64,000 bases of DNA from Reyranellaceae bacterium (GCA_022844045.1 JALHMM010000016.1:19806-83805); one strand, 5' to 3'; positions 27,654 through 33,659 are shown, counted from the first letter of the stretch. Notes: generated from the letters alone by a model not told the origin. Translations and numbers: made by a program.

Positions 27654-29129
27654 CTAGGCCCTGCGGGCCATGCCGCCTGTCCAGCCGACTTGGGGGCCGC
27701 TCCACCAGCCGGCGAGCGATCGCGCCGCGGCCAGGATGGCCGGCGCCGTCACCAGGCCATGGCCCTGGATCTCGCGCGGCATCCCCATGTCCACGGCGCC
27801 GGCGGTGGCGATCCACCGCAGCGCATCGACCTGGGCGCGCCCGCCCGTGCGCAGCGCCGGAACGGTCTCGAGCGCGAGCGCGAGCAGCGCCGTCACGGCC
27901 GGGCAGGCCATCGACGTGCCATCCCACGCCGCATAGCCCTGCGGCACCGTGGACGCGATCGCGACACCGGGGGCGCACACATCGACCTCGGCCCCGTGAT
28001 TCGTGAAAGTGGCGCTGAACAATCCACCGTGCCAGTCGCGATAGGGACCAACCCGCCCGCTGTGGGCGCTGTCCTTGGGGAACGACGCCATCCGCCCGAT
28101 CGCGCCGACGCCGAGCACGAGCGGGTGCGAAGCGGGGAAGGCGACCGAGGTGGCATCGTTGCCGGTCGCCGCCACCAGCGTCACGCCTGCCTCGACCGCT
28201 TCGGTGATCGCTAGCGCGAGCGCCTCCGACCAGGTCGGCGACCCGAGGCTGAGATTGACCAGATCGACGCGCCGTTCGCGGCACCAGTCGATCGCCTCGA
28301 CCAGATCGGAGACGAACCCGCCGGGAAAGACCTTCACCGAGAAGATCTCGGCTCGCGGCGCGATACCGCGGAAGCGCGCGGCCTCGTCCGGTCGGGCGGC
28401 GACGATGCCGGCGCAATGGGTGCCGTGACCCTTCTCGTCGGTCGCCCAGCCCGCCGGATCGCCACCATCCAGCGTGTTGAACCCGTCACGCACGCTGAGC
28501 CCGGGCACGCGGGCGATGCCGCTGTCCACCACAGCGATGGTGACGCCCTGGCCGGACGGACCGGCGTAATGGGCGTTCACCCCGAGCAGGCTCAGCATCC
28601 AAGCGGAGGACCGCGCCGCATCCAGCGGCATCAGGGTCGTCTCGATCGACCGCGAGCCCTGCGGCGGCGGCACCACGCGCGACCAGAACCCGGCGCGAGG
28701 CGAAATGATCACCCGATTGACCAGCCCCGCCTCGACTCGGATGGAGGTCCGTCCATTCGCATCGGTCTCGGCCCGGAAGCCGAGCATGTCGCCGACCGCG
28801 AAGACGGTACAGCCGGGGATCGGTTCACCGGCGGGATCACGCACCGTCACCTGCCAGACATCCTCGGCGACGGCGGGAGCCATCGGCGGCAGGTCGGGCA
28901 TCTTGAAAAGCACCAGCGGTTGGTCCTCCTCGACGATCAGGTCGGGGCGGGTGGCGGCCAGGCGCTGCGCGTCGGCCACGCTCATCTCCAGCACGTGCAG
29001 GCGGACGGAGGCCCGCGACTTGACCAGCTTCGCGTCGGTCTCGGATCCGGCGCCGACGAAGGCGCGCACCGCGGCCTCGGCCGCCGGAGCCTCGCTGGGG
29101 CGACGCGGCCTGACGATGATCCGGCTCAA
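27654..29129 (-). CDS. S8 family (subtilisin-like) serine peptidase, no signal peptide
   Basis: Catalytic triad VVDSGI / HGTHCAG / GTSMACP. Start assigned to the TTG at 29129, 5 nt after GGGAGGA and 10 nt after the stop of the upstream gene. The N-terminal part of track ORF 27654..29321 overlaps that upstream gene. Confidence 0.85.
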   Translation of the reverse strand: MSRIIVRPRRPSEAPAAEAAVRAFVGAGSETDAKLVKSRASVRLHVLEMSVADAQRLAATRPDLIVEEDQPLVLFKMPDLPPMAPAVAEDVWQVTVRDPAGEPIPGCTVFAVGDMLGFRAETDANGRTSIRVEAGLVNRVIISPRAGFWSRVVPPPQGSRSIETTLMPLDAARSSAWMLSLLGVNAHYAGPSGQGVTIAVVDSGIARVPGLSVRDGFNTLDGGDPAGWATDEKGHGTHCAGIVAARPDEAARFRGIAPRAEIFSVKVFPGGFVSDLVEAIDWCRERRVDLVNLSLGSPTWSEALALAITEAVEAGVTLVAATGNDATSVAFPASHPLVLGVGAIGRMASFPKDSAHSGRVGPYRDWHGGLFSATFTNHGAEVDVCAPGVAIASTVPQGYAAWDGTSMACPAVTALLALALETVPALRTGGRAQVDALRWIATAGAVDMGMPREIQGHGLVTAPAILAAARSLAGWWSGPQVGWTGGMARRA

Positions 29130-29139
29130 GGCATCCTCC

Positions 29140-29943
29140 CTAGTCGCCGCCGATCGGTATGCCCATCGCGACCGCCTGGGCATGCACCTGCGCATCCGGC
29201 CGGGTCGGCGCGCCCGGCGGGATGTAGAGCGTCGAGGCGGCGGACAGCTCGACCGTCGCGAGCCCGCTGATCCGGATCCAGCTGATGCGCGGCCGGCAGC
29301 CGAACTGGACGGCCGCCTCATAAACCGCGACGTGATGGGTCGGCGCGAAGAATCGCCCGAGCTTGGCGATCAGCAGCGGCATCAACGGCGTCTCGTAGCG
29401 CCCCATCGGGCTGTAGCCCTCGTTGCCGAGGATGCCGATCTGCCAGAGCACGAGCGCGCTCGCGGGATCCGTGGGCCGCTGGTTGAACAGGTAGTCGGTC
29501 GCCTCGTAGGACGAGCACCCGGTGGTCGCCGGATCGAAGCCGACATCGGCGAACAGGCAGTCCTCGGCCGAGATCCCCGGCAGCATGACGGCGGAGAATC
29601 CTTCGGCGCGGGCCTGCTTCACCGCCTCGTGCGACGGATAGACGAAGACGCCCGGGTGTCCGTAGAACACGGCGCAGACCGTCAGCCCCTCGCGCACCAG
29701 CGACAGCACGCGCTCGACCATGGCGTTGTAGGTGTCGATCCGCTTTGTTGACGACGAATAGAGCGTCTGCAGCGATTCCGACTTCTCGTTCAGCGCCGCG
29801 ATCATGTCCTCGGCGACCGGATCGCCGACGACATAGACGACGCGGTCGGCCATCCGGATCCAGGAGATCGCCTCGACCGTCATGTGGCCGACGGTGCGCA
29901 GTCCGGTGCCGACCACGACGAGCTTGCCGCGCTTGTCGGTCAT
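29140..29943 (-). CDS. tetrapyrrole-methylase-fold SAM methyltransferase of the borosin alpha-N-methyltransferase type (OphMA/SonM-like), stand-alone
   Basis: Carries KLVVVGTGLRTVGHMT, VFYGHPGVFVYPSH, MLPGISAEDCLFADVGFDP, YEATDYL, LVLWQIG and STLYIPP. These match, from memory, the methyltransferase domain of the omphalotin enzyme OphMA. The start ATG overlaps the upstream stop (ATGA). Confidence 0.8.
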   Translation of the reverse strand: MTDKRGKLVVVGTGLRTVGHMTVEAISWIRMADRVVYVVGDPVAEDMIAALNEKSESLQTLYSSSTKRIDTYNAMVERVLSLVREGLTVCAVFYGHPGVFVYPSHEAVKQARAEGFSAVMLPGISAEDCLFADVGFDPATTGCSSYEATDYLFNQRPTDPASALVLWQIGILGNEGYSPMGRYETPLMPLLIAKLGRFFAPTHHVAVYEAAVQFGCRPRISWIRISGLATVELSAASTLYIPPGAPTRPDAQVHAQAVAMGIPIGGD

Positions 29944-32692: not shown

Positions 32693-33068
32693 CGTGTCCC
32701 TCCTCAACCCGATCAGGTGTCCCGTTCAGGTCATGGTTCTGGTGTCGCGGGTCACCTGATGCTGCGGGAGCCAAGTAGAACTGAAGAATTCCACGGCAGA
32801 CTATTTCGATACTGCTTGACGGTTAGACAACCAGGCGACGTGGCCGATTCAAATGACACGTGAGCCCGAAGCTAGATCGCGACTCCCGCGTGAAGCGAGC
32901 TTGGATGGGATGCCGAGCATCATCGGAAGACGATGATCGTGACCCTGCAGCCTGATGGCCTCCGCGGCCTGGACGAGATTCGCAGCTGCCTCGCCAGCAC
33001 CGAAGCGCCGACCTTCACCGCGCCGTCGGCCGCCAGCGGGCTCAACTGGCCGTGCTGGGAACCTGGCC

Positions 33069-33659
33069 TCAGGTCGTCCCGTCATCTGTCGTGCCCCCGG
33101 AGCGCCGACGTCGCGCGGTGAGCGCGCGTGTGTAGTCTAGAGAGTGTGAACGTAGCGTCGTCTCACCGTGGGCGGCCACCACGAAGGGTTGATGTTCTGT
33201 GCGATTGATTGATGTTTCGTGCGTGCGCGTACCCGACCGTTCCCCGTTCATCTGAAATTCCTGCGAGCGCCATTGGGTCGGCGAGCAGCCGTACAGGCGT
33301 CGAAAGTCGCGATCGAAGTTGCTGGTGCTGTTGAAGCCGACCAGCGACGCGACCTCCTTGACGCTGAGGGTCGGATCGAGCAAGTGGCGCTTGCCCTCGG
33401 TGAGTCTCAACCTGATGCAGAGTGCGCGGAAGCCGATGCCGGTTTCCTTCTTGATCAGTCGGCTGAGATGGGTCGGCGAGATGTGCAGTGCGCGCGCGAT
33501 CTCGGTGATGCGCAGCGAGGGATCGCGGAACGATCGATGAACAATCTGGATCGCGCGTCCCGCCCGGACGTTCACCCCCCCAACAGGGTCCGACGTACTC
33601 ATGGCATCACCGTGAGACATAGGGGCTTTGGCTGGAGCGGAACTCGCCCGATAATTCAC
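33069..33659 (-). CDS. AraC family transcriptional regulator (short form; start uncertain)
   Basis: HTH region ITEIARALHISPTHLSRLIKKETGIGF...VKEVASLVGFNSTSNFDRDFRRLYGCSPTQWR. Alternative starts at 33620 or 33602. An AT-rich region lies upstream. Confidence 0.75.
   Translation of the reverse strand: MNYRASSAPAKAPMSHGDAMSTSDPVGGVNVRAGRAIQIVHRSFRDPSLRITEIARALHISPTHLSRLIKKETGIGFRALCIRLRLTEGKRHLLDPTLSVKEVASLVGFNSTSNFDRDFRRLYGCSPTQWRSQEFQMNGERSGTRTHETSINRTEHQPFVVAAHGETTLRSHSLDYTRALTARRRRSGGTTDDGTT

Follow-up and report, generated by a model that had tools for sequence, protein, structure and literature searches.

A 64,000-nucleotide stretch of DNA from a Reyranellaceae bacterium (GCA_022844045.1 JALHMM010000016.1:19806-83805; the whole stretch is hereafter called the window) carries, between positions 27654 and 33659 of its minus strand, five co-oriented genes for an AraC-family regulator, a 494-aa repeat protein, a homologue of the protein arginine methyltransferases (PRMTs), a borosin-type α-N-methyltransferase (NMT) and an S8 subtilase. 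The PRMT homologue ends in a borosin-binding domain (BBD), a module that the adjoining NMT lacks. We propose, as a reading that we consider reasonably probable, that the locus works as a whole as a gene cluster for a peptide made by the ribosome and modified after translation (RiPP) with a new split-borosin architecture. The five open reading frames (ORFs) had been listed in a preliminary description of the window; we find them at the same coordinates, given below, and their boundaries agree with the JGI gene calls. The BBD on the PRMT, the leader motif and the acid/base balance of the repeat protein, the YcaO-containing sister clusters and the accessory standing of the S8 and AraC genes go beyond that description.

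A borosin-binding domain on a PRMT homologue

The 267-aa enzyme encoded at 29140-29943 (minus strand; TP_methylase, 1.7e-20) is, on its sequence, a borosin α-N-methyltransferase, with the activity itself predicted. In comparison with the PDB it matched dbOphMA at 5.8e-58, OphMA at ~1e-53 and SonM at 2.6e-48, against 2.9e-4 for the best corrin methylase, and none of the NCBIfam corrin models came near its cutoff; the preliminary description, which had arrived at a borosin-type rather than a corrin enzyme by recalling motifs, was correct. Residues Y62, R68, Y72 and Y94 align with Y66, R72, Y76 and Y98 of OphMA and with Y58, R67, Y71 and Y93 of SonM, and the roles of this Tyr/Arg/Tyr/Tyr set in the SonM active site are known by mutagenesis (PMC8429565). 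The window NMT aligns end to end with SonM, which has no BBD of its own, and no BBD is fused to it.

The start codon of the NMT gene overlaps the stop codon of the gene for the PRMT homologue (383 aa, 29940-31091, minus strand), whose product matches PRMT_C (9e-14) and class I methyltransferase domains and is closest in the PDB to PRMT6 (1.8e-41), with PRMT8, PRMT1, PRMT2 and CARM1 also matched, at ~32% identity to eukaryotic PRMTs. Its type I PRMT-like catalytic module spans residues 1-305 (30177-31091, minus strand) and contains motif I (VVDVGAGSG, residue 36), the double-E loop (SEWMG..DENML, E105/E114) and the THW loop (residues 253-255). All three had been read from the sequence in the preliminary description, and all three are invariant in an alignment of 33 divergent family members. 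An AlphaFold2 (AF2) model built on that alignment reached a mean pLDDT of 92, and a Foldseek search with it returned PRMT6, PRMT2 and CARM1 at E ~1e-32 and TM ~0.8, with the two-domain fold and C-terminal β-barrel of those enzymes. From the conserved guanidinium-binding glutamates only, we infer that the homologue would methylate arginine guanidino groups.

Beyond the barrel the model passes through a low-confidence linker into a five-helix segment (residues 325-375, pLDDT 90-97) that coincides with a LigA-like helical bundle at residues ~322-376 (29964-30128, minus strand), after which only seven residues remain before the C-terminus. Searched as a single sequence against the PDB, this tail had SonA as each of its seven best matches, at a marginal E of 0.02; as a profile of 31 PRMT tails it matched SonA at 2.3e-8, followed by a LigA-domain dioxygenase and then by the 322-374 region of OphMA, and the Pfam LigA model matches 24 of the 31 tails. 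Because the tail profile matches SonA, LigA domains and OphMA 322-374, we take the tail to be a genuine BBD, and one that carries no core. It recurs in about 45 database clusters whose members have 380-435 aa; the majority of bacterial PRMT homologues, at ~315 aa, lack it, as do PRMT homologues at loci without an NMT. What follows the BBD amounts to 4-10 unconserved residues, for the most part polar in relatives (ETGHSS, EAEKDA, QIEQNS). The 63 positions of the tail profile correspond, in an extrapolated alignment, to about SonA residues 1-61 and so end just before the SonA core, which comprises residues 62-71 and is methylated at L63 and I65 (PMC8429565). The isolated SonA BBD binds SonM with a Ki of 3.9 µM and supplies most of the binding energy (PMC8429565).

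The precursor family and its loci

The repeat protein (494 aa, 31208-32692, minus strand), which heads the string of structural genes and whose ATG is preceded by the ribosome-binding site GAGGAGGG, consists of a leader, an acidic block and a basic block. Profile searches assigned families to the regulator, the PRMT, the NMT and the S8 protease and none to this protein: it has no match in Pfam or NCBIfam, LigA included, and no BBD was detected in it. Within the leader (residues 1-78), an alignment of 11 homologues delimits a conserved motif at residues 41-74, VERHVIYRIDSATNQVVGIESLDPATGKREEMPM (32471-32572, minus strand), with the consensus ExHxVYxxNxxTxQVxKxEExDxxTGERKExPM across homologues; its hidden Markov model has matches in 11 loci. 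The acidic Tyr-rich block that follows (residues 79-265, 187 aa; 31898-32458, minus strand) holds 30 YDP motifs and 30 Asp at a net charge of -30 and is encoded largely by a 36-nt tandem unit in 13.4 copies (31905-32386). The basic Pro-rich block (residues 266-494, 229 aa; 31211-31897, minus strand) is built on a 39-nt unit in 13.9 copies (31250-31808) and contains 29 Xaa-Arg-Pro-Pro units and 30 Arg at a net charge of +29, a count that agrees with the roughly 30 arginines in a Pro-rich context claimed earlier. Proline makes up 82 of its 229 residues (36%) and arginine 13%, Cys, Ser and Thr do not occur beyond the junction, and the precursor as a whole is near neutral.

Homologues share three features with this protein, namely the N-terminal motif, a Tyr/Asp/Gly-rich acidic region and a Pro-rich repeat region that usually terminates in Phe. 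The numbers of acidic and basic residues differ by no more than two in 14 of 16 homologues from genome loci, over a range of 7-34 (r = 0.99, computed over the 14 that agree), and one of the two outliers, that of locus L040, is a frameshifted, truncated ORF. Anionic pro-regions neutralize cationic peptides in animal precursors. We propose from these compositions that the acidic block may be a stoichiometric neutralizing propiece for a cationic core, and that the basic Pro-rich block may be that core and the substrate of both methyltransferases.

A profile of the leader made from two sequences, run in a full scan of 1.84 billion representative proteins, retrieved 36 proteins at E<=1e-3, most of which have 80-250 aa and the precursor layout, many with CLPPRC-type cores. 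Two of the precursors found (P0134 and P0140) have little or no core Arg, and two metagenomic ones (P0126 and P0155) carry the leader motif twice in tandem before the Tyr/Asp-rich region. A few matches are unrelated β-propeller or YD-repeat proteins (P0132, P0138, P0141), and the motif resembles single blades or hairpins of YVTN β-propeller and YD-repeat proteins (VSVIDTATNQVIDVDPTT..; P0138, P0132), which suggests that it may be a free-standing β-hairpin unit. Against a word-indexed database of 5.8 billion proteins, in which the word index and composition bias were limiting, a 44-residue leader profile found a single match, to a partial Longimicrobium protein, and the full repeat protein found four irrelevant low-complexity ones.

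The reading frame itself was also examined. Plus-strand ORFs at 31090-32778 (562 aa) and 31157-32542 (461 aa), with Ala/Gly/Ser or Arg/His repeats, overlap the precursor gene; we rejected them as genes and regard them as mirror-frame by-products of GC-rich tandem repeats, as distant relatives show protein-level conservation of the minus-strand frame alone. That the minus-strand repeat ORF might likewise be an artefact of GC-rich repeats was rejected, since its conservation as protein across phyla and its strong ribosome-binding site speak against this. Between the precursor stop and the PRMT start lies a perfect 32-nt GC palindrome (31149-31180, minus strand), seen already in the preliminary description, whose RNA forms a 14-bp hairpin of -35.5 kcal/mol (z = -4.3). 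Strong GC hairpins, unrelated in sequence, lie 3' of the precursor stop in 10 of the 12 loci folded. A hairpin after the precursor gene is a common device of RiPP operons, where it raises the precursor-to-enzyme ratio.

When 185,579 species genomes were scanned with the PRMT alignment, 80 loci were obtained. The order precursor, PRMT-BBD, NMT occurs in at least ten unrelated genome contexts in Proteobacteria and Acidobacteriota, with Paracoccaceae, Allosphingosinicella, Nitrosospira, Burkholderiales and two Acidobacteriota metagenome-assembled genomes (MAGs) among the hosts and more examples on metagenome contigs, and these loci are flanked by unrelated housekeeping genes that differ from one to the next. 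The association of PRMT-like, borosin-like and repeat-protein genes that the preliminary description had singled out in the window is thus a recurrent one.

Alternative fusions appear to link all four proteins functionally. In loci L012, L026 and L040 the S8 C-terminus runs into a basic block of the PTFPTRPTLT type and then into an acidic block of the YEDPYAG type, so that the tie between protease and repeat protein suspected earlier exists as a single polypeptide. In L011, P0067 and P0107 the PRMT carries the precursor leader motif as an N-terminal fusion, which points to the PRMT as the probable leader-binding partner; an AF2 model of the P0067 fusion shows only the second hairpin of the motif at moderate confidence. 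In L009 the PRMT is terminated by a stop codon, beyond which the same frame runs on through the BBD into the NMT, giving a protein with the BBD as the N-terminal part of the NMT (BBD-NMT).

Several of these loci have further peculiarities. The L009 arrangement (L009:10001-12061, an Acidobacteriota MAG from a long-read assembly) depends on a single in-frame stop between the PRMT and BBD-NMT frames, which may be genuine or else an assembly error that masks a fusion of three domains, PRMT-BBD-NMT. The Egibacteraceae MAG at L011 (9812-12206) has two tandem PRMT paralogues, each with an N-terminal leader motif, and in this locus a separate gene for a repeat precursor was not seen. At L062:7379-10912, in the 'Candidatus Gilichinskyi gelida' MAG, a tail-less PRMT has two borosin-type NMT paralogues in tandem (277 and 262 aa) directly upstream of it, and no repeat precursor of the YDP/RPP type was found near these genes.

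In a second group of loci the PRMT adjoins azole-forming rather than N-methylating enzymes. Three genes stand between the precursor and the S8 or PRMT genes in L014, L016 and L020, encoding a ThiF-like leader-binding protein of the thiazole/oxazole-modified microcin (TOMM) type (TIGR03882, 71 bits against a cutoff of 36.9), a SagD-type YcaO (TIGR03604, 334 against 219) and a SagB dehydrogenase (TIGR03605, 127 against 78). L028 has the order AraC, precursor, YcaO, S8, PRMT, without ThiF-like or SagB genes, and L035 combines YcaO, SagB and PRMT on a short contig on which no precursor was found. L014:3529-5310 holds two tandem precursor genes, each encoding a Gly/Tyr/Asp-rich region and, after it, a Cys/Pro/Arg-rich one, ahead of the ThiF-like, YcaO, SagB, S8 and PRMT genes. 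Because these sister clusters carry the same precursor family, the repeat protein is anchored as a RiPP precursor.

The PRMT is present in all five YcaO loci, and S8 in most of them. Across 18 independent loci YcaO and NMT are mutually exclusive and the PRMT is in every one, and no match to YcaO, ThiF-like or SagB proteins was found in the window locus (L001) or in other NMT-type loci. The cores differ to match: they are Cys/Thr-rich with YcaO and Cys-free, aliphatic or Thr/Phe-rich, with NMT, without exception in the 18 loci, and the only residue found in nearly every core that adjoins a PRMT is Arg. This correlation of core chemistry with the enzyme present is the best available evidence that the NMT may act on the repeat core, and it favours the repeat protein as substrate, as the preliminary description had supposed.

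The S8 subtilase (491 aa, 27654-29129, minus strand; Peptidase_S8, 8.6e-39) has a propeptide-like N-terminal region and a β-sandwich domain, and its triad motifs stand in subtilisin order (VVDSG at 200, HGTHC at 235, GTSMA at 404). Its gene is coupled to that for the NMT: the NMT stop TAG is immediately followed by a GGAGGA, and the TTG start comes 5 nt after that. An upstream-extended ORF of 555 aa was discarded, being Arg-rich where it overlaps the NMT gene out of frame, and the TTG start having a perfect GGAGGA. No hydrophobic signal-peptide segment was seen when the N-terminus was read by eye, in line with the earlier claim that the protease lacks one. Orthologues of 43-54% identity adjoin the PRMT in L008, L014, L020, L021, L028 and L035; the gene lies after the NMT in Nitrosospira and before the precursor in L021.

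The AraC-family regulator (HTH_18; PF12833, 4.8e-24; 33069-33659, minus strand) has an uncertain start codon, with 177 aa in the JGI call against 196 here, and is separated from the precursor gene by a 376-nt intergenic region (32693-33068, minus strand) that is the presumed promoter/operator; a scan of the minus strand of this region for the sigma-70 consensus found no site. A homologue of 48% identity lies upstream of the precursor homologue in L028, and the remaining loci have none. Of the single unit that the preliminary description saw in the five genes, the precursor/PRMT/NMT neighbourhood is thus conserved, whereas the S8 gene is missing from most NMT-type loci and the AraC gene recurs only in L028; by their distribution, we regard S8 and AraC as accessory components.

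Around the cluster, an ATPase of the AAA_16/AAA_22 type (397 aa) followed by an NYN-domain protein (224 aa) lies ~2 kb away at 35414-37509 on the plus strand. The two could be a defence-type pair, and no link between them and the cluster was seen in any relative. On the other side, downstream of the cluster, a Fic-domain protein (389 aa) is encoded at 23101-24270 on the plus strand, with an amidohydrolase and a TctC-family binding protein in between.

Proposed pathway and its alternatives

In the pathway that we propose, AraC would control transcription of the cluster, and the hairpin 3' of the precursor gene would set a high precursor-to-enzyme ratio. The 494-aa precursor would comprise a leader with the β-hairpin motif, the acidic Tyr/Asp block and a 229-aa hydrophobic (Xaa)n-Arg-Pro-Pro core, which the acidic block would neutralize electrostatically. 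The PRMT, as the component common to the whole precursor family, would recognize the precursor, probably via the leader motif, and methylate the guanidino groups of the ~30 core arginines. Its core-less BBD would dock the BBD-less NMT so that the two enzymes act as one complex, in which the NMT would methylate backbone amides of Leu, Ile, Val and Phe between prolines; since proline fills the other positions, a large part of the core backbone would have no free N-H. The cytoplasmic S8 protease, accessory and acting where present, would then remove the leader and the acidic propiece, with a predicted cleavage site close to the conserved junction ..SPALTLFP.. (between residues 270 and 285). As product we predict a Pro/Arg-rich polypeptide that is cationic, heavily N-methylated and resistant to proteases, or fragments of it.

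Several observations weigh against this proposal. In loci L012, L026, L040 and L045 the PRMT is tail-less and the NMT paired with it is without a recognizable BBD (a candidate BBD in these NMTs was rejected, as only a ~30-residue helix precedes the catalytic domain), and because of these loci co-operation of the enzymes would not proceed by BBD docking alone. The interaction of leader and PRMT is indicated by natural fusions only, and the first half of the motif is of low confidence in the P0067 model. Proline stands at every third to fifth residue of the core, which puts its acceptance by a borosin NMT in question. Charge balance holds in only about half of ten shorter, possibly partial, metagenomic precursors. 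Removal of the leader by S8 would not be general because most NMT-type loci do not have the protease. Beside the triad, conservation of an exporter or immunity gene was not seen in the loci compared, as in the window, where the preliminary description had seen neither, and this would be unusual for a secreted antimicrobial. Finally, every locus comes from a metagenome or MAG without a cultured producer or product, and the system is known from sequence alone.

The absence of a conserved transporter or immunity gene, and of a signal peptide on any of the proteins, would be explained if nothing were exported and the repeat protein were instead an intracellular polyampholyte, serving as scaffold, condensate or storage protein, with methylation tuning its Tyr/Asp-Arg interactions and S8 turning the protein over. 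The 1:1 ratio of Asp to Arg and the pairing of a Tyr-rich with an Arg-rich block would suit such a role, and eukaryotic PRMTs do tune phase separation driven by Tyr-Arg contacts, as in FUS. However, the same leader-motif family occurs in loci with YcaO/ThiF-like/SagB machinery, which is known only from RiPP maturation, borosin NMTs are known from RiPP pathways only, and both the hairpin 3' of the precursor gene and the protease-precursor fusions fit the logic of a RiPP operon. We judge an intracellular role of this kind unlikely. It is more doubtful still that the PRMT-BBD is itself the borosin precursor, a Type IV-like BBD-core protein with a large N-terminal enzyme whose tail, ..EALFKPVVTP, the NMT would methylate, with either the PRMT alone or neither enzyme acting on the repeat protein. 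Such a reading would account for the placement of the BBD, which sits on the precursor in every characterized split borosin with a BBD-less NMT, and the window tail does present Phe, Val and Val after the BBD; yet the post-BBD tails of relatives are too variable, mostly polar and short for a core, all of them ending before the position of SonA L63/I65 in the extrapolated alignment, in L009 the BBD forms the N-terminal part of the NMT and no core comes after it, and the co-occurrence of Cys-free aliphatic cores with NMT would go unexplained.

Lastly, the PRMT-like protein might be a non-catalytic adaptor, or an enzyme that methylates an unrelated target, which only delivers the BBD and binds the leader, so that the product would be methylated on the backbone only. 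The invariance of motif I, both double-E glutamates and the THW loop in 33 divergent members argues against a loss of catalysis, as do the retention of the PRMT in YcaO-type loci, where there is no NMT to dock, and the Arg shared by nearly all cores that adjoin it. Enzyme folds do serve as adaptors in RiPP pathways, literature searches found no arginine-methylated RiPP, and the P0134 and P0140 cores have little or no Arg to modify, but we consider an adaptor role very unlikely. We retain the proposal of a RiPP-type cluster in which both methyltransferases act on the repeat core.

A broader extension of this proposal seems to us possible, though we hold it only tentatively: that these PRMT homologues define an unrecognized bacterial RiPP family whose one precursor scaffold, made up of a hairpin leader, an acidic propiece of matching charge and a repeat core rich in Arg and Pro, would be arginine-methylated and then either azole-modified by YcaO or N-methylated on the backbone by an NMT that the PRMT recruits via a transplanted BBD. 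Its products would be bacterial counterparts of the animal Xaa-Arg-Pro-Pro peptides and the first ribosomal natural products with methylarginine, and the family would give a context for eukaryotic PRMT ancestry. Backbone N-methylation and arginine methylation both alter the permeability, protease resistance and binding of peptides, and a natural complex of two enzymes able to put both modifications on a ribosomal template would, if the proposal is true, be a useful tool for peptide engineering. The BBD would likewise become a portable docking module beyond its role in leaders and would add a class to the borosin classification, and bacterial PRMT homologues, whose role is largely unknown, would gain a dedicated, genetically linked substrate that bears on the origin of eukaryotic arginine methylation. 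The 1:1 match of acidic and basic residues over 7-34 would be a clean example of selection for intramolecular neutralization of a cationic peptide, and the resemblance of the core to Bac5 suggests, by analogy, that bacteria may make proline-rich, possibly ribosome-targeting, peptides of their own.

Relation to known systems

The closest characterized relative is the Type IV split borosin SonM/SonA of Shewanella oneidensis (PMC8429565), which resembles the window system in its stand-alone, BBD-less NMT of ~265 aa with the active-site Tyr/Arg/Tyr/Tyr set and in the SonA-type BBD encoded immediately upstream of the NMT, with overlapping stop and start codons. Unlike SonA, the window BBD sits on a 383-aa PRMT without a core, and the presumed core lies on a third, BBD-less protein. 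In the published borosin classes the BBD belongs to the NMT, to the precursor or to both (bioRxiv 10.1101/2021.12.24.474128; bioRxiv 10.1101/2024.01.09.574750). The split borosins of Types V-VIII, such as RceA and SliA (bioRxiv 10.1101/2021.12.24.474128), share large precursors with many near-identical repeats that are methylated many times, to the extent of 32 consecutive N-methylated residues in SliA (same source), but their BBD is on the NMT, which in the window is unfused, and their repeats are acidic or polar (DVIELSSGGEL, TEVX). The presence of a BBD on a tailoring enzyme has a precedent in the unusual BBD-GNAT fusion noted in a RODEO survey of borosins (bioRxiv 10.1101/2024.01.09.574750), the sole such mention in the borosin literature compared.

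The combination of PRMT, borosin enzyme and repeat polyprotein looked new to the preliminary description, and the literature bears this impression out. The main texts and supplements of the two borosin genome-mining preprints (10.1101/2021.12.24.474128 and 10.1101/2024.01.09.574750) contain no mention of arginine or PRMT; PrmA, PF06325, PF05185 and PF00082 are absent from both supplements and 'subtilisin' from the main texts, these last two terms being those by which S8 was looked for; and neither preprint mentions an Arg-rich core or a charge-balancing block. Full-text searches that paired borosin, RiPP or YcaO with PRMT or arginine methylation, or borosin with Peptidase_S8, returned nothing relevant. 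In the literature searched, a PRMT carrying a BBD for NMT docking is an architecture described nowhere, and the cluster looks as if it sits inside an apparently unrecognized precursor family defined by the PRMT.

With the eukaryotic type I PRMTs (PRMT6, PRMT1, PRMT2 and CARM1) the window enzyme has in common the two-domain fold, motif I, the double-E loop and the THW loop; it differs in being bacterial, in being operon-encoded beside a dedicated repeat substrate and in its fusion to a BBD. Aravind and colleagues observed that groups in bacteria that are sister to the eukaryotic PRMTs lie in operons for peptide secondary metabolites (PMC3417536), which is the nearest earlier statement, a general one without a description of the present system. 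The clusters for TOMMs, or linear azole-containing peptides of the SagBCD type, are related through the sister loci L014, L016, L020 and L028, where YcaO stands beside the same PRMT and the same precursor family; in contrast, the window has no YcaO, ThiF-like or SagB gene, and its core offers no Cys, Ser or Thr for cyclization.

The core itself is most like the proline-rich antimicrobial peptides, for which the published criteria are at least 25% Pro and a net cationic charge (PMC7736402). By composition only, the window core falls within both, and it shares Xaa-R-P-P repeats with Ile, Leu, Val and Phe with Bac5 and deer P9 (PMC7736402), an aromatic last residue with deer P9 and a compensating anionic region with animal precursors. 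It differs from Bac5 and P9 in being bacterial, not homologous, five times longer (229 aa against 43) and predicted to be methylated.

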